Source: Catajapyx aquilonaris (Eukaryota). Taken from it: DNA of 64,000 nt. Below the pieces are notes generated by a model that was not told the origin of the DNA, made no database searches, and was given only the letters and a program-made list of their open reading frames with translations. The position numbers were made by a program, and so were the translations under genes. The stretch lies in assembly GCA_000934665.2 (NCBI GenBank), contig KZ538463.1:1-64000 (forward strand), read 5' to 3'. Each line of letters begins with the position of its first letter. The stretch's first letter is position 1. This document shows, piece after piece, positions 1,884-56,200 of the stretch.

Positions 1884-12133
<10,250 letters not shown>

Positions 12134-14632
12134 CTCTCACTGTGCCTCTGCCAACCGGGGAACCACAACAATGACTGCGCTACGGTGGCTGGAGACTCTG
12201 ATTCAGATTCAGGCTTGTTGTTGGACCAGTCCTCAGACCAGCCTCCATAGCGGTGGTAGTAATAGTAGTGGTGGTGGCGATGACATTGGTGATGGTAGTG
12301 GTGGTGGTGCCAATAGTTCCCTCCCAGAACCTTCATCACATGAACTGCAGAGAAATACAGATGGATCAGTTTTCATGCAACACGATCGTCAACTGAGCTA
12401 CATTGCAGCTTACAGTTACACCTTCCAAGACACACACACTCTTGCTGCTGGCCGTATCTGCTACGAGCCCATCTTTTAAATTAGAGTGCAACTGCTTTTA
12501 ATCCAAATGTATATCTTGCAGGTATCCAATTCAGATAAGAGACACAGATGGTAGCGGCACTAAGTGCACTCAGCAACAATTCCTCTCAAAGAGAATGAAA
12601 AGGTCACCACATCAAGTCTTGTTGCCATATGGCAGGTTAATTTGACAAATCACTTCCGATAAAATTTAAAAGAGTGATTGGCAGTAATTGTAGTTTCACT
12701 GCCTGCTTTTTTTCGTCAATGACCTATAAAAGCTCTCTTCTGCGCTGACGAGGAAAACATGATGCAAATTGCAAGGATTTTGAATGTACATAGCTCTAAT
12801 TTCTTTCCGCATACTGCCATTAAATGTGTCACGCATTCCACTTAAAAATCATACGGCCTGCTAAGAAGTGGTAACTCGAGAAATTACACCCTTGGTTAAG
12901 TTTTCCACTCCCAGCCAAGTATAACCCATGTACTGGAACACTCCTTGCTCAAATTACAAATTATTGCTGTTTGGCATGGTTCGTTCTGCTGAACACTGGA
13001 ATGTGACTGACGAATACCCAATGAAATTAGCACACCTCAGGTGTGTTCCAGTTGGCTGGCAAACAAAAGCATTCCAAACACCAGCAATTTGTAACTTTTG
13101 ATGCAACATGCTCCAGGCTGCATCGTCATCTAAAACGAGATGCAGCAGGGATTTTTAAAAAAAAATTTATCGAAGTTCAATTGCAGCCTAATGTAATTAT
13201 TTCTCCAAGCACAAACACGTGCAAAATTGATTTCAATAACAATTCATTTGCATTAAGCGCAGCACAAATCTGCCTATACAATGATACGGAAAATACATGT
13301 AATCTACCATAATTATTTTCACCTTACATAACCTCCACAACAATGACTCCATAATCATCCCGACAAGATCTGCCAAAAGCATATTTTCACATGGATCATA
13401 AGAATAAGCAAACTTTCTCTTAACCTTACACAAGAGATGCAAATGAACAACAATGGCTCCGCCTCGAATGGAGTGAGTCAAGAATTTATTTTAATAAACC
13501 GCGTGCCAGACAACATTTCGTTGCGACTCGCATTAAATGAGCCATCAAGACGTCGGATAATTAATGCACAAGTAACAAGGGTCTATTTATGCAAATGAAA
13601 GCCAAATGAGAATGATTTAAAAAATGCAAGGCAATTATTCGAGGATCACTGGCATGTGAAGGTCACTGTCAAGGCCAATGTGTCATACTCAAAGACACAA
13701 TTATAGCTATATATATATATTTTTTTGCATACATTTTAAGCCCTGAAGCAATGCAGCTTAAATTCATTCAGACTTATTTCATAAACCAAGTGCGATGTAA
13801 TTACCTTAATGCAGGGAAGAGTTGCGATCATGTATCCAGGTTTTCACTTTCACAGATAATTCCTATTTTGTGTAATCTTCCTCCGAACAAACTTTTCTTC
13901 CAAACACTGGGATTTTAAAATATATATTAAAAAAAAAAATTGCTCCTTTAAAATAATTCAAGGCACTTGCACTTGAGGCCACACAAATGTTAAGGCACTG
14001 GTTGCACTGTCACTTTAAAAAAAAATAGAGGTCACATTTCTGCAAGGCACTTCACTTCTAGGTCACAATCCAAATCCTCAGTTTCGTCCTGTGTAAACCT
14101 GCGGAGAAAGAACAGCACAACATTGATGAACCAATTTTTAAAAAATACAAATTGTACAGTGTTATTGTCATAAGTGCACAAAGCCTGCTGAGAGGACAGA
14201 CACAGCTGCAATTGTGGCTAGAAATCCTTACTCGTGTGTGATACATTCCCATACCTCAACATGGCATCATCAACAGCAATAGTTTCCTACCCTTATCATT
14301 ATTACAATGGCACGAATAAAAAAAAGGCACATATGCACTTGTTCACAATCTTGAGTTCACCATGCCATTCCGCCCGATTCCATTCATCCGTTCCCCCCTC
14401 CTCGCTTGTGAATGAAAGGCGAACAATTTGAACATTACGAGAGCGAAACCCGCATTTTTGTCTATCCTTACCGCCAAAGTATGCTATCAAAAAGCGCCAT
14501 AAAATGCACCCATAGAAATTATAATACTGAAGGTTACTAGATAAATGTAAACACCCGCATACTTTCCATCCAACAATAGCACGTGCCCTAGTTAGTCCCG
14601 AGTCGCAACTGCAGAACCATTGTGCACATACT

Positions 14633-15070
14633 GTACTTGTCCATTACAAAATGCGGGCAATTTGTACGTAGTGTACAAAATGCGGGTAATACGTAGCGTA
14701 CTTGTCCATTACAAAATGCGGGCAATTTGTACGTAGTGTACAAAATGCGGGTAATACGTAGTGTACTTGTCCATTACAAAATGCGGGCAATTTGTACGTA
14801 GTGTACAAAATGCGGGTAATATGTAGTGTACTTGTCCATTACAAAATGCGGGCAATTTGTACGTAGTGTACAAAATGCGGGTAATACGTAGTGTACTTGT
14901 CCATTACAAAATGCGGGCAATTTGTATGTACTGCACCATGTACATGTACCAGTACCATGTGCTGTACCATTACAAAATGCAGGCAATTTGTACATAGTGT
15001 ACTTGTCCATTACAAAATGCAGTAAATGTGTACAATATGTACTTGTTTATTACAGATTGCGGGCAATTAT
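14633..15070. repeat. 65-bp minisatellite (~4.6 near-perfect copies, then degenerate)
   Basis: Unit GTACTTGTCCATTACAAAATGCGGGCAATTTGTACGTAGTGTACAAAATGCGGGTAATACGTAGT starts at 14633, 14698, 14763, 14828 and 14893. Confidence 0.92.
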
Positions 15071-15289: not shown

Positions 15290-15950
15290 AGAGCCGCCAT
15301 CTTGAAATGCCACATCCATTTTTTTTTTTCCTTCCCTTATTCTTATTCTTTGCACTCTCTTTACACACTTCAGCATTACAACCTCTTTTTTCTCTACACT
15401 GTTCGTACCCCACATTTTTAACACGGTACGGCCCCACAGACAGGGGGGGGCATACTCACCAAATTCACGTCCGTTGAATCGAGCCATTTTCGAACACTAA
15501 TTCCACAGTGTTTCATTACGGAACGAACTTATAAAAAAAAAAGAAAAAAGAAAAAAAAAAAGTTGCACTTCCCACCCCTCTACTTCCCGCCCTCCCCCCC
15601 CTCCTTTTTCCGGAGGGGGGTTTTTTGAGCCCCACTCCCGTATTATTTTGTGGTGGTGGCCCACCCGTACAAATCCGGAGAAAAATTGGGGCCCAAATTC
15701 TGTCCGATATTTGGGACTTCAGAAGGGGGGGGATTAAAACTAGTGAATATTGAGGGGGGGAAAAAGGGGGGGGGGGNNNNNNNNNNNNNNNNNNNNNNNN
15801 NNNNNNNTTTTTTTTTTTTTTGACTGGAAATTTTTTTAACAAAAAATCTTGGTGGTTGAAGTTGTGGACGCCAGATGGCAGGAGTTGATGGAACGATGAC
15901 CGGTAGCAGCTGGGTCGGTACTTATCGGTGCCATGGATGTAACGAGGGTA
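15290..15950. promoter_or_regulatory. Putative bidirectional promoter region for warts (-) and NDUFAF4 (+)
   Basis: Divergent genes; YY1/Pho-type GCCGCCATCTTG at 15293-15304; candidate 5' splice donors pointing outward (minus-strand GTGAGT at ~15459, plus-strand GTAAGT at 15948). Confidence 0.5.
15777..15807. other. Assembly gap (31 N) flanked by homopolymer-rich, low-quality sequence
   Basis: Run of n characters with poly-G and poly-T flanks. Confidence 0.98.
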
Positions 15951-19588: not shown

Positions 19589-20612
19589 GCCAGACACCCG
19601 TTTTCATGGAAATGATTGTTATTTTGTTGATTTCTTCTTTTGACCTTAGAACTCTGCTTGAGCAGGGTTCAATAAAATTTTAAGTGCAGCTGCTCGTTAA
19701 AATTGTACTACAATCCCACATCACTTAAAATTCCCAGTCAAGCCTCTCCCTCAACACGTCCGTGAGCATGGGTCATGACTGAATACAATCCCTCTCGACA
19801 TATGTCACGAAAAGGTGAGAAATTCTCTTCCATATTTTGTTGGTCCCTATACATTAGGGGTGTTTGAAGTATGCAAAGTCTCGGAAGACCCTTGTCGCAT
19901 GCTGTGTTTCTGGTTTACTCTGCATTGTTACGGGGACAATCCCCGAATTGAGAAAGGCATCATGTTGATGATCCTATATGGTATTCTGCAACAATGGCGT
20001 TGGAAATGAAGCCTGACCCTGCATATTCTATCCCCTTTGCATGGGCCCCTACTCATTCAAAATTTCTGCAATTATTTGTAATAATTATAAACATGCATAT
20101 ATGAATATGTGATGCACATTAAAAGTTCATTACATAATCTAAATACAGGCCGCACCGGAGTGTAAATAAATGTTGCATGATTGTTACAAATATTCCAGAA
20201 ATCAATGCTTGTTTACTCTCTACTTTCACTTGTTTCAACAATATACTTGGACTACTTGTGGTACAGTCCTATAAAATAGGTCTTTTTCTAGGCTTTATCC
20301 GGTTTTTAAGTTAAAAGCCAACATCTTAACTTGTCATTCAATTACTCTGGTGCACATGTTGCTGACTGCTCCAATGTGAAGCAACGTAAGTAAAGAGCAA
20401 ACGTGAATACAGGCTTTTCTTCTAACAGTGGATTACTTTAGACTGTTTAGAGAGTACAGCGCGTGCTTATTGGCCAGTCCTAATTGTGAGACACTTGCTT
20501 TCAACCGCCCCTAATAAAGCGGGCTGCCTATATTGAAACTATAGATCCCAGTGCTAGAGTAAGTACAAGCAGGGCACCTCTTCTCGACCATTCCCACCCA
20601 ATTCATATACAG

Positions 20613-23600
20613 AGAAGAGAAGACCCCATTCGAGAGTGGAAGTAGAGTACGGTAACATCTGGAACAACCCAGAGGGGCCCGGTCCTCAGCCCAGAGTGTT
20701 GGTCCGCGACCATCCTGGACAGGGCGCCTCCTCGCCTGCGAAATGCGACTGCAAGAGTAAGGGCATCGATGACCCTTCCATACCACCCCCTACGACGTCG
20801 AGGCGGTCGTCAATCCCTCCGTCAAGGCGACAGAGCGATGGGTCAAAAGGGCACGGCTCTTCCGAGGAAGACAGAGACCACTACGAGAAGGTGTTGACGC
20901 CATCGTCCAGGGCGCTTTACGAAGACAAGGATCAGTTCAATTGCACCCCTAGACAGCTCCCTCCCGGCGCGACGGGGTCCCCGGGCCGAGGACGCGTGCT
21001 ATCTCCAGACGACACCCGGGGCCGCCCAGAGACCATGGAGTCGAAGGAGCTGCTGAAGAGCTTCGCCCGGCTGAAGAAGCCCTCGTGGTACAACACCCGC
21101 GGCCCGCTGAAGGACAGTGAGGTGTACGGAAGCGACTCGAGCGAGTGGCAGTCGGCTCCGGGAACCTTTCGCAGACCCAGCAGGGTGTCGTTCTTGCCCC
21201 CGACTGACACCTCCTCAGGGTTGGCGTCGTCCACGCCGACAATCATGGGCGGCTCGTCCAGGCCTCTGGCCAAGTTCAGGAACGAGGCCTACACGCCGGT
21301 CGAGATCTCGATCGCTGACTCGAGCAGCGAGGACTCGTCAGACTGGACCACTGACGGACGCGGAGGCTCCAAGATCATGAACCTGATCATCAAGGTTCGG
21401 GCGGCCATCAACAAGAAGTTCAGCAGGACGAGCCACGACGGCATATCCAACTCGGACTCGCAGGAAAGCAGCATCACTCTGGACCACGGCAGCTCCCTGA
21501 TGAGAGAGCTGATGCGGAAGGACGGCGATAAGGAGAAGACGCCGTGCTGCGGGGTGAAGAAGAACAAGCCCGAGGACATGGAACCGGCCTACGAGCCGTC
21601 CGTGTCCCACGCCACCACGTCTTGGAGGTCCACTGGCATCGCCCCGATCATCGAAGAGGTGCCTTCGGACCACAGCACCGCCACGACGGGGACAACCGGG
21701 GACGCTGACGTGTCGGACGTGGACGAAGAGCCGGAACTCGAGGAACAGGAACCGGAACCCGAGGAACCGACTCCGCCCCCGTCTCCGCCCAAAGGCGGCG
21801 GCGGCGGATGCTGCGGGAAGAAGAAGGACGACGGTGCTCCGTACCTCCCGCACGGAGTGTCCGAGGACGTGTCCAAGTACTTTCCGTCCGGAATCAAGGC
21901 CATCGACGCCGGCCAGCAGTTTCCGAGCATAACGGATCTGAACGGCAAGAACTGCCGGTGCGAACCTCCCCAGGAGCGCGAAAGCAGGGCATCACGGTCT
22001 CCGAGGCAGTCCCAGACTTCACGGCAATCGCAGACCCAGACCCCATCGTCAAAGCAGTCGCAGCAGTCGCAGCCACCACTTCAGAGGATGCAGCAGCAGC
22101 CTCCTCCAGCCCAGGAGCCTCCGCCGCCAAGGAAGCAGTACTCCCGAGAATCCGCGCCTCCTCCAGCCCAGGAACCTCCGCCGCCAAGGAAGCAGTACAC
22201 CCGAGAACCCACGCCTCCCAGGAGAGAATCTCCGAAACCTCCGCTGATTGCGTCCGCAAGCAAGCAGTCGCTTCCGTTCCAGGCGATGCCGGCCATGCAG
22301 GTGACGATGCGTCGGATCAAGGCTTCCCCTTATACCCACCAGTCGTCCCCACCGAAAGCAGAGGTCGACTGGGACAGCGTGAAGCAGAGAATCTCAGTGT
22401 CCAAGGGCAAGGCGCCGGAATCCCCTCAAGGAAGCACCCCGAAGAACGTATCGTTTCGGGTGCCGCCGACGAGGACTGTCGGAAAGACGCTGGACCAGCA
22501 CTGCCCTTGCCCGTCGTCCCGGGAGCGTAGTCCCAGTCAGGAGCGGGCAGAAAAGGCCGCTAGAACCTTTTTGGAGAGCATGACTCCGACGCAGTCGTCA
22601 CCGACAGCGCGAGACAGACCAGCACCGACATCGCCGCCAAGGGAATACTCGAATCCACAGCAGCCGCAGCGTGCACCGCCTCCCACCCGGCAATCCACAC
22701 CCCCGGTGCAAAGACAGCAGCCCCAACGACCGTCTTCGCAGCCTCTGAAGAAGCCGCAAGACTGCGAGTGTCCCTCATCCTACTGCGACGTCCGGGAACT
22801 GTCTTCGAGGCTGTCCACGGGGCAGAGGCAACCACAGCGCGAGCCGTCCCCATCACGCGCTCCAATCAGAGCAGCATCCCCGGCGCGCACTCCTCCCAGC
22901 CAATCACCTGCACGCACTCCCACTCGGGAAATGTCCCCGTCACGCTTGTCTCCTCGCCAGTTATCGCCAGCGTCGAGTCCGAGGGCATCGAATTGCAAGT
23001 GTCCCGATTACTGCGAGGAGCATCCTAACGGCCCATTTGCACAACAAAAACAACCGTCAATTCAGCGACAGTCCCAGCCTCAGAGGCAACCTTCGCCTCA
23101 ACGACAGGCGCCATCCCAACCGGTAGTGCAAAGGCAGCCATCGCCGGTTCAACGGCAAAGTCGGCCTTCACGCCTCGCGGTGCCTCCAGACTGCACATGC
23201 CCGGACGACTACTGCGAGGTGCATCCTCCCAGGCGACGCTCCATGCCTTCAGCCCCATCAGCACCCCAACCGCCAAGGCAGCCTTCGCCTCTGCCACAGC
23301 CAAGCCAACCTCAGCGACAGGCATCCCAACCTCAACAGCAGAGGCAGGCATCATCTCAAAGGCAGCCGCCACCGCAGAGTAAGCCGTCGCCTCAAAGGCA
23401 GCCACCGCCCCAAGCACCAGTGCAAAGGCAGCCGTCAACTGCGCCAAGGCAAAGTAGGCCGTCGCAACAGCCGGTCAAGCCTCCAGACTGCACTTGCCCC
23501 GAAGACTACTGCGAAGTACACCCTGGCTTCCAACAACGGCCCACTTCTCCATCCCCCTCGCCAAGAGCCGTGTCACCAGCTGCTTCGCCAAGACGTGCGT

Positions 23601-24184
23601 CGCCAGCTCCGTCGCCAAGATCCGCGTCTCCGGCTCGATCGCCTCCGCCTTCCCCCAGATCGCAGGAGCCTCCTAGACCCAGCAGAGGGCGAGTGCCCCA
23701 GACCATGCCATCCCAGGAGTCCAATCCCAACTGGCAGTACAAGATCCAGTACGCCGAAAAGCTGTTCGAGGATTCCGAGCCGTCTCTGGCTGGCATTCAG
23801 CCCATCAGAAGAACTCCCAGCTCCTCGATCCTGAAGAGCGGCCCTTCTCGCAAGCCTTCCCCGCAGCAGCCGAGGCCGTCGTCACGAGCTCCGTCGCAGC
23901 CTACTAGGTCGTTGCCATCCCAGCAGAAGCCGGTTTCGAAGCTTACTTCCCCAGCGAAGAAGTGCGGAGCCTACGAGTGCGGTCACGATGATGTCTGCAA
24001 CGAGTGCGGGTCCAGGTCGGCCACTGGAGTGCCGTCCGAGCTGATGCCGGGACAGTCGGTGGCAACCCTGGTCGGAGTTGTGTACGACTTTGACGTGCCT
24101 CAGTGCATGGAGAAGAAGGTCAAGCAGTCGAACCAGATGATGCAGCAGATGCAGCAGCAACAGCGGGCCAGCAGGCGCCGTTGA
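20613..24184 (+). CDS. Uncharacterised ~1190-aa Pro/Ser/Gln-rich protein with repeated CxCPx(1-2)YCxxHP-type motifs (ORF-A); 5' end uncertain
   Basis: Stop-free frame from 20558 to 24184, GC-rich against AT-rich flanks, ATTAAA at 24233. First in-frame ATG is at 21035. A candidate upstream mini-exon (ATG 19802 to donor 19815) spliced to the acceptor at 20612 would give MSRKEKRRPH in frame (inference). Confidence 0.8.
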
Positions 24185-24888
24185 GGAAGTAGCAGCGTTA
24201 CTCAAAGTTGTTACAGTATACCCATGAACCGGATTAAAGATTGATCGGGATTGAAAAATGTGTTGGGGAGATTCTCGTGAACTCCTACAACTTACAACGA
24301 CTGCCATATCATGAAGGAGGGGAAGGGAGACATTGTTGCACGTTCAACAGTGTTGTAACTTGAGGACTTCACGTCAGTCTCTCCGTATGTAGATGTGTTG
24401 CAAACTTTTGGTTGTATGTATGGTATTGTCGGAGTGCATAAATGTACCGTATAGTCCGTACGTGATGTGCTTATTATTAGGTTTCAGGACAGGCGTGTGA
24501 AGAGAGTCAGAGAAGCGTTCCATATGTGTTGATAAGCTAACATTGTGTAAGTTATGAGAGTTGACCCTATTGGTTCATATGCGACGTCTTCCCAAGATAG
24601 CAACCCCAACCGTTTTATCTAACCGCTCTGTTGCAAGTGTTACCTATATAGGCAGTGGTCTATTCCGTAATTTATTTTATGGTATACATGCTACAATATA
24701 CATGACCTACTGTGTTGCAGCATTTTGTATGGATATCCTGATTAATGTTTCGGTTCAAATGTGGTGTGTCCCTGGGAAAGGCGAACAAGTCAGTATTCTT
24801 ACGCGGTTAAGTTGAATATCCTCCTCCACTTACTGAAAATGTATGCAAAAAAAAATGCATCTATCTTGTAGCAAGTCAGACTATTCAC

Positions 24889-27800
24889 ATGCCTGTCCCT
24901 AACGAGAAAGAAAAAAAAACAGAAAACCGAAGTTACCGGCACAACTTTTTTGACTTGTTCACCTCTTTCCCAGGGAGGCGTCCAATGTGGGGAAAGAAGT
25001 TGACACCTCCCGAGTATTTTGACTGGGAGATCATACGGAATTCTGGAGCCATCCGGATCGACCTTAGCCGTCACAACGTGCCTCCAATCAGGGCCAAACC
25101 GACACCTGGGATTGTGTCGCCACTGGCTAAGCTGATGCAGGAATGGCGGAGGAACAAGTTGGGTCTGGCGCCGAGCTACTCCGAGACCGACGTCGACAAT
25201 GTCGGCGACGACAGCAATATCGATGACGACCGCAATATCGATGACGACCGCAATGTCGGCGACGACAGTGGCGATGCTGACGACGGAGCTAACTTGCCGC
25301 CCTGGCTGGCTGACCAGAAGGGACGGAGACTCCCTTCGCCGGACAGGTACGACTGGGGTAAGATACGGAAGGATGAGTGCATTCACGTATCCAGGAGCAG
25401 ACACAACATGGCTCCGTCGAGGGCCAAGATCTGGATTCCGGGAGTGAGCCAAGGCGAAGGTTGCATGTGCAAGTATTGGAAGCCTAAAATTTTGTTCGAG
25501 ACGCCGCATGGGTCTCTGGCGCCGTCGCCGACGCCTACCCCAAGGGGTCCCCCAGCGACACCACCATCACGAACCTTGTCTCCAGCGACGTCTCCGAAGG
25601 GGTCCCCGTATTCATCACTATCAGCGACGCCATCCCCGCAGACTTCGCCTCCTGCTATGTCACCTCGAGCCCCACACGAGGTACGCAAGCTTACCTCGCC
25701 AGATAAGTACGATTGGGATGCAATACGCAGGGCGGGTGACATACGTGTGTCCAGAAGCCGTCACGCCAAGGCACCGTCGAGGGCAAAGTTGACGCAGTTT
25801 GGTGAGCAGAAGGATGAGCAAGAGGGTGCTGGGTGTGGCTGCGACGAAGATGAACCAGAAGTCGAGGACTCGGGGATTCCGCCTGAGACTCAGCAGCAGG
25901 TGAGGAGGAAACTTCCGTCGCCAGATCGGTACGACTGGGATGCCATCAGGCGATCAGGTGGAATACATGTGTCGAGAAGCCGGCACCCGAGAACACCGTC
26001 AAGAGTGTCGCTGGCTCCTCAGGGTGGCGATCAGGACGAAGTGCATGGAGATGAATTCCTGGTCGAAGAACCGGAGGAGGAACCGGAGGAGGAACCGGAG
26101 GAGGAACCAGAGAAGCCACCAGCAGAAACGACCCTTAGACGCCGCGTGCTTACGTCTCCGGACCGTTACGACTGGGCTGCCATACGGAGAGACGGCGGGA
26201 TACATGTGTCGAGAAGCCGTCACCCTAGAGCACCGTCTAGGACAAAGTTGACTCCTCGTCTGGCTGAACCGGAGGACGGTTGTCGGTGCAGCAACGAGCC
26301 GGAGGATTCTTCGTTCCCAATGACCCTTGATCCGGAGGATTCCTCGTTCCCAATGACCCTTGATCCGGAGGATTCCTCGTTCCCAATGACCCTTGATCCG
26401 GAGGATTCCTCGTTCCCAATCACGCTAGAACCGGAGCCTCAGGCTGTGCGTAAACTTCCATCTCCAGACCGTTACGACTGGGACGCCATCAAGAAATCCG
26501 GTGGGATACACGTGTCGCGAAGTCGCCACAACAAGGCACCTTCAATAGCTAAGCTGGATCCATTGCAGTCAGGAGGACTCCAACCCCAAGCTGTGGTCAG
26601 AGCGGAGTGGAACTGCGTCAATGTTGTAGGCATGAAGGTATCGGCCACGACGTTGGTCGGACCGGCAATTGAAGAGAAGCCGGTTAAATTGTGCACTTGT
26701 CCTCCGAAAAAAGATGTGCCGGCGCCGAAGTCCCCGGCGCTTTCTCCGAAGAGGGCTTCTCCCAAAAGTCCAAAGCGATACGACGACTCCTGCCCCATAA
26801 ACGCATGTCCTATCGATTCAATGGAATTGTATACCAAGCGTAAGTCGGACGCTGTCTCAAAACGGCCATCACCACTGAAATCCGGCGTTTTACCGCAAGA
26901 ATCGTCGCAGTGGGGCTACACCATCGATTTCGATCAGAGCGTCTCAAGCGCCTCCGCAGCAGACTTGGGTTCAAGACCGTCGCCGACACGACCGCAGATG
27001 AAGGCACCCCCGAAATCACCCACAGCATCGCCCAGCACACCAAGAGCACAGCCACCAGCAATTGCGCCGATTCGGTCTCCGAAAGGGGCACCAGCATCGC
27101 CCGCACCTAAAGCAGCACCGCCACCAGAAATGGTTCCGATTCGTTCTCCGAGAGGGGCACCAGTATCGCCCACTCTAGGACGATCCCCTCCTGAAATAAT
27201 GCCTGAAGAATCGTCCATGTGGGGATGTTCCATCGACTTTGACGAGAGCTGCACGACCCCCGCCGGAAGCAGCTTTGGCGGTCTTCAAGGCTCAAAAGGT
27301 CCGACAATACCGCCTTCTTCGAGACCGACGTCGACACAGCCCAAAGCGAGAGCACCCAGGCCCGGACCTTCAGCACTATCGGGGAAACCGTACATGGCAA
27401 AATTTCCGCCGAAGACATCCCAGCTCCAACCATTGGCTGAAGAGTCGTCCAGATGGGGGTATGCCATCGACTTTGACGAGAGCTACTCGACCGCCTCCGC
27501 AACAGGACCACCGACAGTGCCATCGAAACCACAGCCTCCGCCAGCACCTTTGAGAAGAGGACCTTCGCAGATGTCACCAGCAGCACCAAAGCCAAAACCG
27601 ACGCTAGCAAAAGATTCGTCAATGTGGGGGTACACCATCGACTTTGACGAGAGTTACTCGACCACCTCCGCAGGCAACAGCCTCCAGAAGGTTCCGACAG
27701 CAGCACGGTCCGGATCGACGACGCCGTCACCCACGTCCTCTCCATCCAGATCATCATCGCCGTCGAACACACCCTCGCCAAGAACACCGACTCAACCTCC

Positions 27801-28230
27801 GATGACTCGTCCGATGCCTCGTCCCACGGTCGCAGTACAGACAAAGAGAGTCACCATTCCTGTGAGCCTGTTGCCGGCGCCAGCAAGTGAGACGGGTAAA
27901 GTTCCGAGGCGGAAGCGATCCAAACATCGAAGGTATCCGCAAACGTCCACCTGCCCTTGCGACCCGGACCCGTGTCACTGCGGCAAAGAAGGTGCCCCTG
28001 TGCACACCCAGCAGCACCTCAAGTCCATCCTGAAGTCGCCCAGCACGTCTCCGAAGGCAGCAGAGTCCAGCAACTGGGGATGCACCATTGAGTTCGACCA
28101 GAGCATGTCCAGCGCCTCGACGATGAACTCGAAGCGGAGCATCGCAATGCCTGTAGGGTCGAGGACGTTCGTCACCAGCAACCAGGAGCTGAGCGATCAG
28201 GCTCGAAATTTTGGAAACAGGATGCGTTAG
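24889..28230 (+). CDS. Uncharacterised 1113-aa Pro/Ser-rich repeat protein with six ~35-aa SPDRYDWDAIRRSGGIHVSRSRH repeats and five ESSxWGYxIDFDES repeats (ORF-B)
   Basis: Uninterrupted ATG-to-TAG ORF; repeat copies keep the amino-acid pattern while codons differ; AATAAA at 28244-28249, 14 nt after the stop. Confidence 0.85.
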   Translation: MPVPNEKEKKTENRSYRHNFFDLFTSFPGRRPMWGKKLTPPEYFDWEIIRNSGAIRIDLSRHNVPPIRAKPTPGIVSPLAKLMQEWRRNKLGLAPSYSETDVDNVGDDSNIDDDRNIDDDRNVGDDSGDADDGANLPPWLADQKGRRLPSPDRYDWGKIRKDECIHVSRSRHNMAPSRAKIWIPGVSQGEGCMCKYWKPKILFETPHGSLAPSPTPTPRGPPATPPSRTLSPATSPKGSPYSSLSATPSPQTSPPAMSPRAPHEVRKLTSPDKYDWDAIRRAGDIRVSRSRHAKAPSRAKLTQFGEQKDEQEGAGCGCDEDEPEVEDSGIPPETQQQVRRKLPSPDRYDWDAIRRSGGIHVSRSRHPRTPSRVSLAPQGGDQDEVHGDEFLVEEPEEEPEEEPEEEPEKPPAETTLRRRVLTSPDRYDWAAIRRDGGIHVSRSRHPRAPSRTKLTPRLAEPEDGCRCSNEPEDSSFPMTLDPEDSSFPMTLDPEDSSFPMTLDPEDSSFPITLEPEPQAVRKLPSPDRYDWDAIKKSGGIHVSRSRHNKAPSIAKLDPLQSGGLQPQAVVRAEWNCVNVVGMKVSATTLVGPAIEEKPVKLCTCPPKKDVPAPKSPALSPKRASPKSPKRYDDSCPINACPIDSMELYTKRKSDAVSKRPSPLKSGVLPQESSQWGYTIDFDQSVSSASAADLGSRPSPTRPQMKAPPKSPTASPSTPRAQPPAIAPIRSPKGAPASPAPKAAPPPEMVPIRSPRGAPVSPTLGRSPPEIMPEESSMWGCSIDFDESCTTPAGSSFGGLQGSKGPTIPPSSRPTSTQPKARAPRPGPSALSGKPYMAKFPPKTSQLQPLAEESSRWGYAIDFDESYSTASATGPPTVPSKPQPPPAPLRRGPSQMSPAAPKPKPTLAKDSSMWGYTIDFDESYSTTSAGNSLQKVPTAARSGSTTPSPTSSPSRSSSPSNTPSPRTPTQPPMTRPMPRPTVAVQTKRVTIPVSLLPAPASETGKVPRRKRSKHRRYPQTSTCPCDPDPCHCGKEGAPVHTQQHLKSILKSPSTSPKAAESSNWGCTIEFDQSMSSASTMNSKRSIAMPVGSRTFVTSNQELSDQARNFGNRMR
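26299..26430 (+). repeat. 33-bp coding minisatellite x4 in ORF-B (PEDSSFPMTLD)
   Basis: CCGGAGGATTCCTCGTTCCCAATGACCCTTGAT repeated nearly perfectly. Confidence 0.92.
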
Positions 28231-30102
28231 TATAAGAGCTTGAAATAAATGAGATTAGAGTCAGCACCACTTTAAAAAAAAAAAATGCGAATTGTTCTAC
28301 GAACCAGTTGTCATAATGTCACCAATTATGATAGTCACTCAGGAGTTTGTGTTGGGTATATGGGGCCGCGGTTGCACCACTGCACTTACAGTGGCATAAT
28401 TTACAACAAGGATTAACAAGTTGTTTAGCACATACTTGTGATGGTATATATGACAGCCCCGTATAGATTGGTTTATTGCAGAAGAGTTGCCTAGTTTGCA
28501 CGATTAATGTGGGTGAATCATATCAATGTAGGAGTTACATTTTGATCCGAATTGTTGTGCAATGCAGTCCTTCGTTCTTACTTATTAGGCCATATGTAAC
28601 TATTTCTTGCACTATAACAATCATGTACGTAAACGGAAATGTTGGAAGAAAATGTAACTTATGTCTGATAATTCAATCTTCAAATTGCGAAATACTTCGA
28701 TTGTGCAAAGCGATGACATTTTGACTAATTTGGCCAATTCTAAGTTTGGCAATTTGTTTATATAATACTCGCCCAAAATATTCTCTGCGGAGAACGTAAT
28801 TACTCCTTCAAAAATCTTGATTTGCCATCAAATAATATTGAACAATGCTTGAAGGCAATAATTTTGACCTAACGTGTCTCTGATCCTTCTGCACATAGCT
28901 GTAGTTTTCGCTTGCAATTTTCGCCAATTACAATCAGGCACATCCTCGAATTCGTATATGTGATTAGGGAAGTTTAACGAGCTTATGTCCCGCATTTTAA
29001 ATAGTTTTTCGTGGGAAATTATGATCCGCTATGCGCCCCAATTTTCGTAAAACTAGCTAATTAAGGCATATGCCGTATAATGAGGGCTTCCTTATACAGT
29101 ATATGAAAATATTCATTCCCTTTATGACTTTAATTAGCTGCAAGACATACATTTACATCAGAAGATTACACATGAAATACGATTGTAACTTGCGGTGCCT
29201 TACATCAGTATGTTATGTATGACTATATTTATATTTCAATTATTCTCCCTTTTTTATGCTGTTGCGATCGTGACAATCCATGTGCAAATTTGCAATTATT
29301 TCCTACTCAATTTATCCCACACAGTAGCAGGAAATATGTACCTACCAGTAATTAATATTACTACGTAACTTGCCGACGCCCTTTGATAATAAGGAGCTTC
29401 GTGCACGACAGAAAAGTCATAGGCGGACATTTTTGAGCACTTTGCAAAAAAAAATGGTAATTGCAACAGTTTTCCCAGAAGATTCAAGTTGGGTCATTAA
29501 TATTCAAATTATGGCCACAATTTCGTGAAAAACACTACTGCTTCACTAGAAATTAAATTTTCAGACACGGATTGTTGGCATGACCCGATTGTTACTATAA
29601 TCAGAGCATTAAAATATGGCAACCCTTGCACCCTCATTGATTATTACCCCATGCGAATTTTTTAGCAGACAAAATATATATATATAAGAGTCGCGCATCA
29701 CAATATTATGAGCACGAAATGTGTGTCAGTCGAGGTCAACGTTCCCATTCCGGTTCGTGACGTCGAATGTGGCCGCAAGGAAGAATAGGATAGCAGGACA
29801 CACATCTGCCTCACATTTTCCTTAGAGTCGGTTGGATCCTCAGGTGAGGTACAAGTAAATGCAAAAACCTCGCAGAAGAAAATATTGCAATTTGTGTGTG
29901 GGAAACTCATGGAAACAATTCAAGGGGGTGTTATCAAGACCGTCGATCGTGTGTGTGTGTACATTGCGGAAGAAAAGGCTTACGTAAGGTACGGCTCCCC
30001 TAGTTTTTTTTTATATGTAGTGTAATTCTCATTTTGTTGTGAGGGCTTGAGCAATAAGCTGTGCGGGGGAAGAAGCCATCAGTGATGAGTTGAGGTTTGA
30101 AG

Positions 30103-47243: not shown

Positions 47244-50200
47244 TCAAAGGGAAGTCTCAAGTCGCCGTTTGTCAGGCGGGGAGACACTTCCAGTCCTTTT
47301 TGGATGTTCGACTGGACCTATGGAATGACGACTCCTGGGCAAAGAGTTGAACTGCAAGTGTCGCCTAGCACCTACGTCCGATACGGGCTCTTGTTTCGGT
47401 GGGGTTTTTTCCAGGTGATCTCCGCGGTCTTCTTCCTGGATCGGAGTTGAGAGGACGTCTGACCGGTTGAGCATGAATCTCTTGCTGCCCAGCCTGGTTG
47501 CTATCTGGTTGATTCTGGCTGAACTCCTTGTTGGTGTTGTCATGGACTGCTGGCCTTTAGCTGCTAATTTCCCAGCCCTCAGCATCTCCACAGCGGACAT
47601 CCGCTCTTTTGGGTCTGACCGTCCGTGTTGTAGTAAAAGTCGCTTGAAGTCATCAATCGATGTAGGCTTGGTCAAGGCTGGAGGTGGAGTTTGTTGGATT
47701 GAGTCGCCTGCCCAACTGGTCCGGTTTCGTGGCGAGTTGTCCAAGCTCCGGAATGACGGCCCAGGATCACTGCAGATACTACTGACTGATATGGGTGACC
47801 AACTACGCCTATCGGCTGCAATCAAGGTTGATGTCTTTGGCATGTCCCACCAGTTCGAACTAGAGAAGTTAGAACCAGAGAGGTTGCTGCTTAATGAAGA
47901 GGATGTCCCGGAAGAAGTGGTGGAAGCTGGAGATGGACTGCGACTGCCAGCTTGCTTCTCAGCCAGTTTCTTTTTCATCTGGTGTAAAGTGGCGTACAGG
48001 TCTTCTCGTTTGCCAACACGCTGCGGATTAGGAAGTTGCCCAGGGGTGCTGATATTCACAGTGATAGCCCGAGGTGGTCCAGGTATTGACCCAGGGGAGT
48101 TGGAGTTGGCAGAGGACCGTGGGCCAATCACCTGCCCAGGCGACCTGAGGTTGAGGGAAGTGCGCAGTGGTCCTGACGGCTGCAGTTTGGATGTGTTTGG
48201 TACTGCGGCTGCTTTGGGAGAAGAAAACACCAAAGCAGCGCGTTCACCATTGGCCACTGGGTTCCTCGGTTGCATCATTTGCTCTGGAAGCTTATTTTGG
48301 AGGTGAAGTCCATCTGCAAAACGGACATGTTTTGGGATTGTAGCGGCACGTAATGTGCCGTAATGGTTCATGGATGGGGGAGGAGCGGAGTGGGCACGTT
48401 CAGGGTATGACGGTGTAGGGTATGTTGGCTTTTGGTATGGAAATGTCGGATGTCCAGGTACCGGATATGTTGGGGTAGGATGAACAGGTTGCGGAGGTGC
48501 CTGGTAGGAAGGAGCTGGGTATGTTGAGGTAGGATAAGAAGCTGGATGATCAGGTGCTGCGGAGGTAGAAGCACGACGTCCTGGTAACGTCCAGTAACCA
48601 GAAGGTTGCGGATTTGCATGTGCAGTAGAGTTCCACTGTTGAGTGTTTCTCTCTCGGGTTGCATTTGGAAGAATGGACGATTGCGGAGGAGACGAGGTCT
48701 GCCCTGAAACTGCAAATGGCAACGTTAGTGCACAATCACACTCGGAAGCAAGGAAGCAACAAAAAATGGAATTGAACAGCGAAGAAAAAGAAATAAAAGG
48801 TGGAAAAAAAAAGTACCTGGTAGCTCACTTGCGACTTCACAATTCTTCAATTTTAGGTGCAGGTGATGGTTATAGGAGTGCAGGTGTTTTTGAAATAAGG
48901 GTGCTGTGCAGGGTGCTTTTGTAAATAAACAAACAGTGCATGCTGCCTATGTAGAGAGAAAGATTGTACTTCACATTTTTTTTTTTGTAAATGGCCAATT
49001 ACAATTTTTGCGGCTTATATCGCAGATTTTTGGGGCTCTTGGCAGACAACATGCACTTGATAGCATCATCCAGGAAGATTTTTTAAAAAATATAACCTAC
49101 CCATAAAAAAAAGGTGTCAAATCCAACTGGATGACTCATGGTTAGGGGGTGCGTTTCTATTAGTTTTAAATTTGGCACTGATTGTATCAACAAGCACACC
49201 CAAAAAAACGACAAGCAAAAGCGGAAAGACAACACGTTTCAAATTAATTTTCTTTCACCACCTTACCCCTTCTCTCTCTTTTTTTTTGGCATGGCCCCAA
49301 AAGCCTGGATTTACAAGAGTCAAATGCTTTACACGACAGTCTACAAGATGACTATAAAAGCAAGCAGTCTCATAAAAGTCTTCCTCAAGTCTTTATACAG
49401 TCTGTTTCCTAAATACAATAAGCTGGTTTGCAGTTAAGAGAAATTGCAGGTACATATCGGTTTATAAATGCACAATATGAACACGATTTTTAATATCAGT
49501 TCTTATCTGTCGATATTAGTCAGTTAGTGTTTACTGTGGTCAGTTAGGAAGATTTTGTTATTAGGTCGTTAAGTGTTAGTTTACAGTATGGTTGTCTATA
49601 TATATTTGTTTTAAAATTTTAGAACATGTAAAATATATATTTTTAAATTAACACAAATGTGCGCAGTGCACTGAAGAAGAAATTGGTGCCGAAAAATAGT
49701 TCAGAAGTGGCATGCAATAGTAATAATAAAGTGAAGGTGACTATGCAGAGAGGTAATAAGGATCGACTACTGGTCAGATTATTTAAATGCAGGGGTTTCA
49801 ACCCATAAATGCACGTTTTACCTGCCATGCGATGTCAAAGGACAAACACAAAATGCTGAACACACACACATGTAGGTTGACAAACAAAACAAAGGAAATG
49901 CATCGACACACACAACACAAAGACATGACATGCAACACACGACTCACGACATGGCACACAGCTCACCATATCTCCGTGTCATTACCTGATTTGTAAAACG
50001 ACGGCGTTTCGTCTCCCTTTGTAGCAGTCCGAGCCATAACATTAATTGGCGACACACTTTTCACTGTCTTTCCTTGCATAAGCGATGGATTCACTAACAC
50101 TTGCGGACCATAGAACCTCCTTCCTTGGACATTGGGATTAGATACTGTCCGGAAAGCAGAGTCCGGATGGGACAGCTCACTCGGACTCACTTGTCGATAC

Positions 50201-53200
50201 TGGTTACCAGGCGACATAGGAGATTGTCTGTTGTTACCAGGATTTTGCGCAGGTGTCAGCGACAGGGTGGTGTTGGCAAGGCGGTAGCTGTCATTGCGGC
50301 GGAGGGTGTTTGACAGAGGTGATGTCGGTGACTTTGGACTTATGGGGTCTTGCATGTTCACGTATGCGCCTGGTCTCTGCTCAACCCTAGGTGACATGGG
50401 GCCAGGTGATGCGGCAACAATCATCCTGTTTGTGTCTGGGCTCTTCTGGTTCCACACAGGTGCCGTGAAAGGTGGTAGTGACTTTGGAGGTGTCAGGCGT
50501 GGTTGCACCGGTTTATTAGTGGTTGGTACAGGTCGGATGAATGACTTGGTTGCTCTGGGTGGAACCGGACTTGGTGGTATTTCCCTTACGTTAGGACCTG
50601 GCTCAAAACTGGATGGCGCTCTGGTTTGAGGTGGCTCGGAGCTGAATATTACCCTGCCTTCAGGGTCCAGCCTGACCCTAGCACCTCTTCGGCGACGTTC
50701 AAGGGAGCTGCCAGGACTGCTGATCTGGCTATGTGGCGAAGAGCTCCGTTCTGACCCTTTGACATCCTGGTCCGAAGTCCCACTGTCAGGGCTGCCCAGC
50801 AGTGCATTGGCCTTAACGAACGATATCTTTCCCTGCGAAGTGAGCCTTGGCAGCTGCTGCAGTGTTACATACTCCGGAGTCCTGATCTTGGGTGGAGGCT
50901 CCACCTTCGGCTTCATCTGCAGCCTCTTCAGGTCATCCATCGTAATGTAGTTGGTCTCACGCTTCGGTGGTTGGGCACCAACCGGGCTCTTCCTGATCAA
51001 ATGGCTAATACTGTCCAGAGTCACATACGCACTGGGTCCGTACACCTCCTTGGTAGCAGCTTCCTTGCTGCTGTCACTGCCCCGGACACTCTCATCATCA
51101 CTGGGTGGCGGCGTGACAACACACAGCGACGGGATATGGCTAGCGTTGATGGTGGTCTTAACCCGCAGTCTCTCTTGCCTCTCCAATCCCTCCAGATCCG
51201 ACTCAGAGTAGTCACCCTCAGGACTCGGCATCTGCAAGTAACCCAGCAATGAGCGTGACAATCAAGGAAAACACAGCGCGCACACACTCTGACATTTGCA
51301 CCCCAACACCCATTCGCAACGCCCCATAAAATGCAAGAATGGTTAAGTAGGCATGAAATTGTTTACCCCCACCAATTTGTTTGACGTGAAGCTTATTGCT
51401 GAGGTAAACAATTAGTTTCTTCGCACAGGAATCATCCCGTTGGTATGACAACCCCGTTGCTATGGACACAACGTTTCTACGGTAACTCAATTGCCATGGT
51501 AATCTGTTGCCACGATAACCCCGTTGCTATGGCAGAATGGGGCGGTAGGTGGGACATACCGACAAACTTTCCCCTTTATATACGTAGCCTACATATAAGA
51601 TTAAAGATTAATGTCTTCTTCACATATCAAACGCACTTGTGTGTCCCTGGGGCTTGTTGGCTCCATCGGAGAACTGGAGGTCTCTCTTCCGCTGTCTCCA
51701 TCCCTGCCGTCGGTGGCGTCACCGGAGTCGGTGCTGTTGGCACCGGCTTCGATGACGGTAATGATGCTGTCCCTGTTCTTCCGCCTCTCCAGGGAGCTGG
51801 TCCTTGGAGGAGGTGCCGGAGGAGGTGCCTTATTGGACTCCTGCTGGTCCAGATGAAGATCCTCTCTTAGAACCACGGTGCCAGCAGAGCTGGTGGTGGT
51901 ACTGGTACTGCCGTGTCCGTACAGCTCGTACTCGTTCTCAGCCGTCAAAGCACGGTTGCTCCCCTTATTCTCCTGCAAGAAAACAGAATTAGGCGATGGA
52001 AGTATCATACCCAGTATTTTTTAAGCACACCAACCATTTTCCCCATACCTCAAACAATGGCTCTCCAGTGAAAAAAAAAAAAAGCTTTATTCTCCAGCTA
52101 GGTAACAAAATGAATCAGTCTGCACGCAATGCTCTCATCTCCCTCCCCACATTTTGATAATTGAGCATTATAGAGTGATAGGAATGGGGGGAACGAACGC
52201 ACATTTCGTGTCTAGTCGGTTCAAGTGAAGGCAGCAGCAGAGAGGCCCCCCCACCAACAGTCGACAAGAGATAACAACGTAGAAATTCGATTAGAGTTTC
52301 CATAATAGCGTCGGAGGTAGGGGAGGGATTTTGTATTGCTCTGCAACCAAAATGGGGTGCACGTTGCTGCTTCGAAAGTGTATCGAAAATATAGTCGCGA
52401 AAATGAGTAAGGTAGCAGACCTGAAGTTTCAATGAGTAAGGTAGCAGACCTGAGCCTCCAAGAGTGGGGTAGATCGCCTCTCTTGGAGGCTAATTTAAGC
52501 TACAGGTCTGCTACCTTACTCATCTGTGTCGCACAGTTTCAACAATTTGCCATGCTATAATTATTGTTAGGTTTAATAATGCGAGTTGGTAGATGAATGA
52601 TATCGTGCAGCTCTTTCCAGTTGTGTTGTCAGAATGATCAGTGCTGATGGCCATTAGTGGCCGTACATTTGTAAAAACAGACTGTCACTCGGAGGCATAC
52701 AGTGTGTGGATTTAACAAGGGAGGGATTTACCATTTACATGGGAGGGTTTTCCACGCGTCAGTAGCCTATAGTGCGTTTGCAATCGATTTTTTTTCTTCA
52801 AACATTCAAGCTCTTGATTCAATTGAAACTATCAGCCGCGGATATCTGCACCACCCTGTACATAGTCAACAACCTTGGCTTGTAAAAACCCGGTCCTAAA
52901 AACGGCTGCCTAACTAATACTTGTCGAAAAACACCGTCGAGGTTTTTACGACCCAACAAAAAAAAAAATCCGGCACCAATTTTTACGTCCTATCCATTCA
53001 TATAGTGTTGCGAAAGCGACAGTGAGCCGTCGGGAAGTCCAGGGGAAAAGGCGCAATAACGACCCGAGAGCGTGAACCCTCCGGACGGGTCAACGGCCCC
53101 CCATTTTCTATACGTACAGCACAGTACAACACTGCGCTGCTAACATCTGCAGGGGGCAAACGCGATCGAGACGCGATCGAGATGCGGTCAAACCGGTCCG

Positions 53201-56200
53201 ACAACGTCTGACTTGCAGTCTGGAAGCGCGGACGCGACTCATTTCGCAGGCCGTACATCTAAGCGCGTCTCGACCGCGTCTCAGCCGCGTTTCGACCGCG
53301 TCCGAGCCGCGTCCAGTGTAACTACACCGACAGACGCGGCTCCCACATCCCATACGACCAAGTGTCGTCGCTCAGCGTTTCGACCGCGTCTCAGCCGCGT
53401 TCTCAACACGTCTCGAACGCGTCTCGACCACGTTCCCAACGTCTCAACCGCGTTTCGACCGCGCTTGGGCCTCCAGTGTAACTGCACCGCTAGACGCGAC
53501 TCACACGTCCCATACGGCATAGTGTCGTCACTGAAACAGCGTTTCGATCGAGTCTGAGCCGCGTTTCGACCGCATCTCACGTAACTTCACCGGTAGACGC
53601 GATCGACTCACACGTCCCTTATACGACCAAGTGTCGTAAAAACAGCGTTTCGACAGCGTCCAGGTCGCTTTAAGAACACATCTCGACCACGTTCCGACCG
53701 CGTCTAGTGTAACTTCACATGTAGACGCGACTTACACATCCCACACGGCCAAGTGTCGTCACTGAAACATAGCGTTTCGATCGCGCTTCGACCACGTTTC
53801 GATCGCGTTTCGACCGCGTCTGGTGTAACCACCGGTACACGCGACTTACACGTCCCATACGGCCATGTCGTCACTGAAACAGCGTTTCGGTCGCGTTTCG
53901 ATCGCGTTTCGACCGCGTCTAGTGTAACTTCACATAGACGCGACTTATTACACGACTTACACGTCCCATACGGCCAAGTGTCGTCACTGAAATGGCGTTT
54001 CGACCGCGTCTCGACCGCGTCTCTGCCCTATAGTACAACTGACCTGCACGTCGTCCTTGAGCGTCCTGATCCCGCTGTCGATATGGAAGGATGTGTAGTA
54101 CCCCTCCGTGTCGCACGAGTATGCTGAGCTGGTCTCGTCGTCCACAAAAGGTATGTCCTGCAGTTCGGGCGTCAGCGTACCTTCTCCCTCGCTGGTCTGC
54201 GAGGAGAAGGAGCTGTCGTGTGGTGGTCCGATAGGCTGGGAGTGCGACGACGAAGAGGTCGAGGCCGGATGCGGTCCCGTCCCTTCAGACACGGCCGAGT
54301 CCTGGTCCGATCCGGATCCGGCCTGTTCGGCCTTGTGTCTCTGCAGCGGTTCGGACTCCAGCGAGGCTCTTGCGCTGGAACTGGCGCTCCAGTTCCCGGA
54401 GGATGATCTGGCTGCTTCGTCCGTGGTCCTCTCCTCTCGCAGCTTGACTGCCACGTGCAGGGCGCTGGTGGCAGACGAAGAGCAGGAGGACGACGGGCGC
54501 AGGCGTCTGGCGCCGGCGCCTCTGTCCGGTATCGCCTCGTACAGGTTCTCCCTCACTGGGCTGGGCTCTCGGTGGACGTCAACCTGGACTGGGACAGAGG
54601 GCAGGTTGGCTCGCTTGGGCTTCGGGTCTCGTCGGGTATGGATCACCAGGCAGCCTCCGCTCCATGTCGATGAGGACGTTGGTCTCCTCTGCTGCTCCAC
54701 GTCCGAGCTTATCGCCTCTATCTCGCTGTGGAATGCACAGAATAACATATATGCAATCCCTCTGTGTGTGTTTTTAGGGGGGCGATATCCCTCGGAATAA
54801 ACATTGGGTGTCAATATATAGGATTTGAAGCCGCAGGGTGACACTTATCATCAAAAAATTATCCGCCAAGGTCAAGTCTACAGGCGGATGTCCTTGGGTT
54901 CCTCTGTGCCGTTGTTGTCCAATTTTAAATTACCTTGGCAATTAGAAAAAAAAGTCTACTCGAATCACGCCAATTTGCCAATCTTGGTTTAACCTTTAAC
55001 ACTTTAAAAAATTAGCATGAATCACAACTCTTAACATTAAATATCGTGAAATGGTTTGAAAAGTTGCGACATGATCATTGCGAAACTTCAGGAAAAAAAG
55101 CAAGATATCATAAAACCTTGCTTACTCCTCCCACTCTGCAACTTTATGGCGGACCATTAATAAGTAGTTTAATGGGAAAAGCTAAGAGCAGCAGGTCTTA
55201 CTTTTTTATGAGCTGCACTTTGGAGACTGCGACATTTTTTTTGCAGAGGTAATCATAAGGAGGAATTTCGTCACAGTCTTCTAGTGACACATGTAGCACC
55301 TTACGTGTGTAAATTAGACCACTAGGCCAACGATGTTCTGCTGAAGTCACGCTAAAATGTTAGTAGGCCCATGCTCTATTTTTTTGTGCACAAAAAGCGC
55401 CTACTTCACGGCTCTCACTTTTGCTATTCAACTACCCTTGAAGGCTACTAACGTTTAATTTCCTACTATCAAAAGTGGAGCATATTCGCTCTCGAAAACT
55501 TCTTGAAAAAATATTTCATTTTGATAACGACCTCCCCAACATCGCAAAAGTGAAGCGTACTCTTGTCCTTTTCACTCAAATGATATGATGAAGACTGGCA
55601 GCCCATTGGGCTTAAAAGAGCGGGTTTTTAATATTATGATCCAACGTGAAAGATTATCTCCAAAACCGTCTGATTACACTGGATTACACTTTACCGCGCA
55701 ACCCCAAAGATTACATGCTCATGCTTCAAGCCACAAATATCTAATCCCATGTTGTTTGAGAGTGAATAATAATAGGCAGTCTCCCCCTTATCTAAAAAAA
55801 AACTCGTTCCACCGCCTTTATATGCCGACAAAAATGAGTAACAAAGATCCTCACATGGTTGCGTTTAATCCTGATTGAAATCCTCTTATTAGAATCAGAA
55901 CAGCTGTGCTTTTCGCAGATTATAGTTTGTAAAAAAAAAAAATTGGGAGGGGGTAATATGACAACATGGCACTTTTGTGGCGCTTCATTTCAAAACACTC
56001 CCTCTTGAAGCGCTTTTAAATTGTGTCATGTAACTTTGACGTACCTGTTGGCTTCCTGTTGCCTGAGTGCTCTTTGGATCTCCTTAGAGTCGGTTCCAGT
56101 GATGGTGTTCCTCCTTCTGCTTTTGCCCTTCTTGCGCCTCTTCTTGTCCTCTACGTAGTCAAAGTGGAGGAGAGAGCGGCGGAAGCGGGTCATTCTCTCG

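Follow-up and report, generated by a model that had tools for sequence, protein, structure and literature searches.

What might be encoded by two very long, uninterrupted open reading frames (ORFs) that lie one behind the other among genes cut into small exons? The question is raised by a stretch of 64,000 nucleotides (nt) from Catajapyx aquilonaris (GenBank assembly GCA_000934665.2, contig KZ538463.1, positions 1 to 64,000 of the forward strand; hereafter the window), in which the two frames, ORF-A and ORF-B, stand side by side in the same orientation. The answer we favor, as probable though well short of assured, is that A and B are real genes, each ending separately and each with one very large exon, encoding disordered, net-basic, Pro/Ser-rich proteins of about 1050 to 1200 amino acids (aa) that would serve as multivalent scaffolds and that have no detectable relatives.

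Evidence for translation

The open frames of A and B run to 1208 and 1139 codons, 3 to 5 times the length of any ORF that arose when the mononucleotides of each region were shuffled 300 times (longest ORF for A, mean 205 and maximum 372; for B, mean 166 and maximum 358). The other five frames over the same regions are broken by 20 to 42 stops each. GC content at third codon positions (GC3) is 0.70 in A and 0.59 in B, as against 0.39 to 0.44, by codon position, in the DNA between the two ORFs, and relative synonymous codon usage correlates with that of conserved exons of neighboring genes far better in frame (0.79 for A, 0.50 for B) than off frame (0.06 and 0.24 for A, 0.29 and 0.17 for B).

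Stronger evidence than any of this is supplied by short modules repeated within each gene (Table 1): basic modules centered on DWD and acidic modules beginning with ESS, both in B, and Cys/His knuckles in A. Pairwise comparison of the five well-conserved DWD modules (B residues 146-521) gives proportions of changed synonymous sites (pS) of 0.56-1.01 and of changed nonsynonymous sites (pN) of 0.13-0.22; pooled over the DWD array, pS is 0.75 and pN 0.25. In one pair (340 and 521), 16 of 25 synonymous sites have changed, as against 10 of 77 nonsynonymous sites (Fisher p = 2e-6). The five ESS modules pooled yield a pS of 0.66 and a pN of 0.20, and the two best knuckles of A (876 and 975) are separated by five synonymous differences and one nonsynonymous (pS 0.63, pN 0.03; Fisher p = 4e-4). 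Since the copies differ chiefly at synonymous sites, we take them to be old and the peptide to have been kept by selection, which implies that the frame is translated. These old modules, saturated at synonymous sites, contrast with a young 33-bp tandem repeat in B (PEDSSFPMTLD), whose 95% matches indicate that recent expansion also happens there.

These results bear on the most deflating view of the locus, that the frames are untranslated: ORFs that arose by chance or survive as relics in DNA of high GC content and low complexity, whether in a pseudogene, a noncoding locus or an assembly artefact. The composition is indeed of low complexity, no homologs were found (see below), and ORFs of 216-240 aa occur in other frames and on the opposite strand. 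However, the length of the ORFs relative to those of the shuffles, codon usage that fits only in frame, and a preponderance of synonymous differences among repeat copies, unexpected for noncoding sequence, make this view scarcely credible. A and B look like genuine coding genes.

Anatomy of the two ORFs

A sequence-only reading of the window had described the ORFs as co-oriented, uninterrupted and each longer than 1100 codons. Orientation and continuity stand for both, and the length stands for B (1113 codons from its first ATG). A reaches 1208 codons only from stop to stop. Its first in-frame ATG, at 21035 and in a strong Kozak context (gagaccATGG), opens a frame of 1049 aa, so that a protein of more than 1100 residues would require an ATG from an upstream exon. 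The start that had been given for A, 20613, is the first base past a pyrimidine-rich tract and CAG (20610-20612), and is thus plausible as the base after a splice acceptor, where an exon would begin, but is no start codon. The remaining description held up: 704 bp separate the stop of A from the ATG of B; each ORF is followed by a poly(A) signal of its own; all the motif strings that had been picked out are present (the DWD strings of A and B, QESNPNWQYKIQY in A and QESSQWGYTIDF in B); SILKS stands near the C-terminus of both (residue 1090 of 1208 in A, 1046 of 1113 in B); and both are rich in Pro, Ser and Arg and contain Cys (A: P 16.7%, S 14.5%, R 9.1%, C 2.3%; B: P 14.7%, S 12.6%, R 7.9%, C 1.7%).

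The N-terminal third of A is moderately complex and gives way to linkers rich in P, Q, S and R that carry the CxCP sites. The spacing of four of these, C-x-C-x4-C-x2-H, suggests that the knuckles bind metal. One DWD-like site, one ES..W site and SILKS complete the list of motifs, and the Cys-rich C-terminus ends in a predicted helix. A CDCK motif also occurs in the open frame upstream of the ATG of A (20558-21034).

In B, the six DWD modules, 74-120 aa apart, alternate with acidic linkers (DDDRNIDDD, EEPEEEPEEE, and the fourfold PEDSSFPMTLD). Ten positions are invariant in all six: L3, P6, D10, W11, I14, I20, S25, R26, H27 and P31. GCxC follows three of the six (C192, C316, C465), and CTCP lies 71 residues past the W of the sixth. 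A cluster of basic residues, RRKRSKHRR (27904-27930, residues 1006-1014), directly precedes a Cys cluster (CPCDPDPCHC) and SILKS; we take it to resemble a classical nuclear localization signal.

Table 1. Features of ORF-A, ORF-B and their surroundings (positions within the window)
Feature	Position	Strand	Remarks
ORF-A, open frame from stop to stop	20558..24184	+	1208 codons; stop TGA at 24182-24184
Single DWD-like site of A, PPKAEVDWDSVKQRISVSKGKAPESP	22346..22426	+	residues 597-623; CPCP 44 aa downstream
Array of five CxCP sites in A	22493..23530	+	four are Cys/His knuckles, CxCPxxYC[ED][VE][HR]; spacing 66-99 aa
QESNPNWQYKIQY site and SILKS of A	23708..23839	+	residues 1051-1094
ATTAAA, variant poly(A) signal	24233..24238	+	49 nt past A stop; sole poly(A) hexamer in the gap between A and B
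12-nt direct repeat AAAAAAAAATGC, 5' copy	24847..24858	+	31 nt upstream of B ATG
ORF-B	24889..28230	+	from first ATG; 1113 codons and stop; frame open from 24811 (1139 codons)
Array of six basic 34-aa DWD modules in B	24994..26550	+	consensus RKLPSPDRYDWDAIRRSGGIHVSRSRHxxAPSR
In-frame 33-bp tandem repeat, PEDSSFPMTLD	26299..26436	+	4.2 copies, 95% matches; young
Array of five acidic ESS modules in B	26896..28110	+	[DE]SSxWG[YC]xI[DE]FD[EQ]S; linkers between them rich in P, S and A
SILKS of B	28024..28038	+	residue 1046
AATAAA, poly(A) signal	28244..28249	+	14 nt past B stop
A12 run and TGC	28274..28288	+	holds 3' copy of AAAAAAAAATGC (28277-28288); run starts 24 nt past the end of AATAAA
Kinase gene, presumably LATS-type	1884-12136	minus	Pkinase match, PPxY-rich exon, UBA-like N-terminal exon

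Gene structure and the origin of B

If each gene has one very large exon, is that exon the whole gene? Perhaps A and B are instead large exons of bigger gene models with further exons on the 5' side, possibly even alternative terminal exons of a single transcription unit. The 159 codons that precede the ATG of A (20558-21034) look coding, with no stops in frame as against 2-5 in each of the five other frames and a GC3 of 0.64, and an acceptor-like CAG ends within them, at 20612. A candidate first exon in the proper phase is available upstream, with an ATG at 19775 or 19802 and a donor, AAG/GTGAGA, at 19814/19815. B has an acceptor-like sequence as well (ctctttcccag, ending at 24973), and a second ATG lies at 24985. 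On the other hand, the Kozak context at 21035 is strong, A has its own ATTAAA, and no donor-like site was seen by eye just before the stop of A. Moreover, the splice sites were read by eye or with a crude script, and dozens of first-exon candidates arise by chance. We hold such further exons to be less likely than not.

Less likely still is that B is a processed retrocopy that happened to insert on the 3' side of A, their adjacency being an accident. Insertion by LINE (long interspersed nuclear element)-mediated retroposition duplicates the target site, leaving a layout of flank, repeat, insert, A run, repeat, flank. B is bracketed by just such a direct repeat, AAAAAAAAATGC, and the A12 run starts 24 nt after AATAAA, roughly where one would expect a poly(A) tail. 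Runs of at least nine A's number 39 on the + strand of the window (about one per 1.6 kb), and only the two within the copies of AAAAAAAAATGC are followed by TGC. A retrocopy would also explain why B lacks introns. Nevertheless, the repeat is largely an A run, such runs are common, and the test was devised after the fact. The acceptor-like site ending at 24973 would lie inside the inserted unit and suggests ordinary splicing, and if the short motifs are truly common to A and B, then landing beside a paralog would be an odd coincidence. We consider a retrocopy unlikely.

Are A and B related?

The sequence-only reading had held A and B to be diverged members of one family, and it had staked the claim on similarity between them that is statistically significant. 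None was found by any of the alignment methods used. The best BLASTP match between the two proteins has E = 0.52. The whole-protein Smith-Waterman score, 228, was equaled by 2 of 200 global shuffles of A and by 31 of 200 local shuffles that preserve composition. When A was scored with hidden Markov models (HMMs) of the two repeat types of B, 447 and 809 of 2000 shuffles did as well, and a search of 1653 six-frame segments with the same models brought up no cross-hit at E <= 10. With hhalign, the DWD profile matched A at E = 0.2 and a probability of 0.3%. When modules were compared with the whole protein by Smith-Waterman, 34, 252 and 143 of 1000 shuffles scored as high, the first figure being that of the DWD-like site at A 597-623 (score 49) and the second that of the QESNPNWQYKIQY site against the ESS repeats. 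Nor does the unbiased sharing of short words depart from chance: A and B have five 5-mers in common (SILKS among them) where 4.3 are expected, a count at least equaled by 198 of 500 shuffles, and the number of shared 4-mers was reached by 52 of 500 local shuffles. At the level of DNA, no similarity extends past low-complexity runs of GAG and CCG. The claim of paralogy thus fails on alignment statistics.

What remains are short patterns. The invariant core of the ESS modules, [DE]SS.W, occurs twice in A, a count reached by 1 of 5000 global and 1-2 of 5000 local shuffles; DW[DE].[IV] occurs once (20-40 of 5000 shuffles) and SILKS once (6-13 of 5000), all three patterns having been picked after inspection. 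None of the three occurs in five control segments of disordered ORFs from the window (1735 aa); the large exons (526, 432 and 286 aa) of an NHS-like gene described below served as natural controls in the motif counts.

A and B could, then, have arisen by tandem duplication and diverged, different motifs having been amplified in each, so that only short motifs betray their descent. They are adjacent, co-oriented, alike in length and composition, and each is in one large exon. The three patterns are nominally rare in shuffles and absent from the controls. The distance from DWD to CxC is 44 aa in A, comparable to the 36-40 aa that follow three of the six modules of B (a fourth has 71 aa), and hhalign and Smith-Waterman agree on A 597-623 as the best match. 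Set against these points are the alignment statistics and the chance level of word sharing, together with the post hoc nature of the pattern tests. In addition, the two [DE]SS.W sites of A come without the remainder of the B module, and the counterpart in A that had been proposed for it (ESNPNW) requires an insertion to align. We would put descent from a tandem duplication at somewhat below an even chance.

The search for relatives

The sequence-only reading had also taken the ORFs for orphans, and here the searches bear it out: no characterized family was encountered in Pfam, PDB, word-indexed protein collections, the ESM Atlas or metagenomes or, for B, by phmmer. In Pfam at gathering thresholds, A matched no family, and the two matches of B fell below threshold (HTH_21 with 15.2 bits against a cut-off of 28.1, and BppU-like_C with 11.3 against 27). 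Scanned singly as 60-aa segments, one of the six DWD modules gave one subthreshold match (CofB_C, E = 0.077) and the other five none. Against the sequences of PDB, A had no matches and B four, all with E >= 0.11.

Word-indexed searches with A and B recovered no relatives, although the two runs with whole proteins filled up with about 8000 low-complexity candidates and could have missed some; a run confined to A residues 150-400, with 2052 candidates examined, also recovered none. An exhaustive phmmer search with B (not A) against 1.84 billion proteins produced no credible relative. Its single match (E = 5e-5), to a protein of 222 aa, was judged spurious: a tandem repeat of FPFPIDPKDGK aligns with the PEDSSFPMTLD repeat of B and with nothing else. 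The ESM Atlas had no usable match to B. The best for A, a cluster named Treacle, scored 0.77, under the level of 0.9 required of a lead, and was read as a likeness of composition only. A scan of metagenomes with the DWD alignment turned up 36 stretches that match the pattern, of which one passed tblastn. That one, at the start of an ORF in a GC-rich contig (...LPSPDRYDWMQYRRCGRSG...), was rejected as due to chance; the start of that ORF looks to us like the N-terminus of a bacterial oxidoreductase. Six motif strings of A and B found no mention in the literature searched.

Comparison with known motifs and repeat proteins

Might the modules of B belong to some known class of linear motif? The DWD module could be an LC3-interacting region (LIR), by which proteins bind ATG8, or a W-acidic motif recognized by kinesin light chain (KLC), in which case B would be a multivalent adaptor for autophagy or for kinesin-1. 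An LIR core reads [W/F/Y]-x-x-[L/I/V] and tends to have acidic residues ahead of its aromatic one (PMC7615515), and the kinesin-1 motif has a central W flanked by D/E, with L/M at W-2, its binding to KLC depending on negative charge (PMC5450233).

The LIR core is present in B: W-x-x-I is invariant in all six modules, with D immediately before it (D10, W11, I14), and the single site of A reads DWDSV. ATG8 interactors bearing LIRs, also called ATG8-interacting motifs, thus resemble B's six modules and the one site of A in having D-W-x-x-I/V (PMC7615515). The core, however, is so degenerate that a match weighs little. Furthermore, conservation in B extends over 34 residues (I20, S25, R26, H27 and P31 are invariant), well past either motif, and the conserved unit is basic, with a C-terminal half (IHVSRSRH..AP) that has no counterpart in LIRs.

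The flanks expected of a kinesin-1 motif are likewise found, D at -1 in six of six modules and D/E at +1 in four of six, giving the D-W-D/E core in those four. Kinesin-1 cargo adaptors such as SKIP and calsyntenin-1 similarly have a W flanked by D/E, in several copies, within a disordered region (PMC5450233). But W-2 is Y or F in all six modules of B, never L/M, and the surroundings, far from acidic, are basic: by direct count the reference DWD module has nine K/R and three D/E. That the DWD module is either known motif is very unlikely.

A third comparison is prompted by SILKS. Some proteins that bind PP1 combine SILK with sites of the RVxF type, [RK]-x(0,1)-[VI]-{P}-[FW]. Matches to this pattern occur in A (RVSF at 209, KNVSF at 629) and B (KILF at 200), matches that carry little weight given the degeneracy of the pattern. 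In PP1 regulators, SILK stands on the N-terminal side of the RVxF site (PMC3792071). In A and B the order is reversed, SILK (A 1090, B 1046) being C-terminal to every RVxF-like match, so the likeness to PP1 interactors comes down to the presence of both patterns, each short and common. None of the three readings, LIR, kinesin W-acidic or PP1, is established.

Among whole proteins, one might think of Tau, MAP2 and MAP4, microtubule-associated proteins that are disordered and contain inexact repeats, basic in charge and about 31 aa long. B resembles them in that basic modules of similar length (about 30 aa), each with a small turn of Gly (SGG), form an array within a protein that would be disordered and is rich in S/T-P. 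It differs in having no match at the cut-offs of Pfam, either for the whole protein or for its modules, in modules that are centered on W and stand 74-120 aa apart instead of being contiguous, and in the strongly acidic linkers between them. By analogy, a Tau-like basic array is a plausible way for B to bind an acidic polymer. Closer in general character are the orphan disordered repeat proteins of animals, which have long, low-complexity ORFs in single large exons, without homologs, with short conserved motifs and fast-evolving linkers. A and B share all this, but the copies of their motifs are old and under purifying selection, evidence that many orphan ORFs lack.

What the proteins may do

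The composition of A and B is consistent with intrinsic disorder. On a charge-hydropathy plot, 39 of 46 windows of 50 aa fall below the folding boundary (21 of 24 in A, 18 of 22 in B), and seven exceed it, by 0.01-0.09. The sole elements predicted by AlphaFold2 (AF2) are short helices in A (112-128 and 1021-1047, counted from the ATG) and a mini-hairpin of low confidence over the first DWD module of B. Charge is distributed in blocks, more so than in shuffled sequences (z = 8.7 for B, 3.5 for A), and B has 47 [ST]P sites where shuffles have 30.6+/-4.5, a count reached by 1 of 1000.

Most likely, A and B are lineage-restricted, multivalent, disordered scaffolds. Each protein would consist of rapidly evolving linkers with short modules set among them and held in place by selection, and the modules would be repeated docking sites, making the proteins scaffolds or adaptors that engage several partners at once. 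The pattern of alternating positive and negative blocks may help B to associate with itself or to bind a charged polymer, and the many S/T-P sites could let phosphorylation regulate these interactions.

A number of points weigh against this interpretation. No orthologs were found in the libraries searched. The evidence for selection comes from within each gene: it compares repeat copies, the pairs of which are not independent and are saturated at synonymous sites, and codon bias could distort pS. By "orphan" is meant only that no relative was found in the libraries searched. The 5' ends are ambiguous, given the 159 open codons above the ATG of A and the acceptor-like sequences whose last bases are 20612 and 24973. 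The low confidence of the AF2 models (mean pLDDT, the predicted local distance difference test, 33.3 for B and 34.8 for A) is a weak indication of disorder, because AF2 run on a single sequence gives low scores to many real folds. Finally, multivalent docking is deduced from the architecture.

A bolder version of the scaffold interpretation, in our estimation quite unlikely, is that A and B are the founders of an undescribed, lineage-specific family of scaffolds that combine two new modules, the basic 34-aa DWD module (possibly a small beta-hairpin) and an acidic module of 17 aa (ESS-W-G-Y-x-I-D-F-D), with Cys/His knuckles that bind metal. Such proteins, possibly at work in germ cells, might form condensates patterned by charge or else coat a polymer of the cytoskeleton or of nucleic acid.

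Disordered repeat proteins restricted to one lineage are a common sight in animal genomes, and in that respect the pair is a modest finding: the evidence for old, selected modules is unusually clear, yet their existence is no surprise. If confirmed, two well-defined peptide modules under long-standing selection would join the catalogue of short interaction motifs, and A and B would provide a clean case of long disordered proteins that preserve their function in a handful of anchor motifs as the rest drifts until it is unrecognizable. The approach may be of wider use. Comparing synonymous with nonsynonymous differences among repeat copies within a gene can provide evidence that an orphan ORF is translated even when there are neither orthologs nor RNA data.

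Neighboring genes and other features of the window

A and B lie within an island of high GC (0.52-0.62) in a window that is mostly about 0.40, other richer stretches being found at 2-6 kb and 50-56 kb. As had been described in the sequence-only reading, the genes around them are split by small introns, appearing as many short ORF pieces. The pieces match Pkinase, UPF0240, adh_short, Amidase, TFIID-18kDa and NHS, matches that point to an animal-type set of genes. We take the UPF0240 gene to be of the NDUFAF4 type and the adh_short gene to be BDH2-like. A weak match to Tim17 in another neighbor agrees with the label TMEM135 that had been given to it. Rfam had no matches across the window.

The kinase gene at one end of the window, LATS-type by our own reading (Table 1), has insertions of poly-Gly inside the exon encoding the kinase domain. 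Between its 5' end (about 12136) and the UPF0240 gene (from 16882) lie intergenic, head-to-tail repeats of about 65 bp (14588-15046), which give overlapping ORFs on the minus strand with nearly identical translations (WTSTL.ITRILYTTYKLPAFCNGQV...). Gaps or ambiguous bases, 33 N in total, are located at 7659, 15777-15807 and 36271. On the far side of A and B, a large multi-exon gene on the minus strand (47244-56442) encodes a disordered protein, two exons of which match NHS of Pfam (30-33 bits), indicating an NHS-like protein. Within its region, at 53000-54100, the DNA is repetitive, with translations resembling RSRFDRVSTAS and ETRSKRG in several frames and on both strands.

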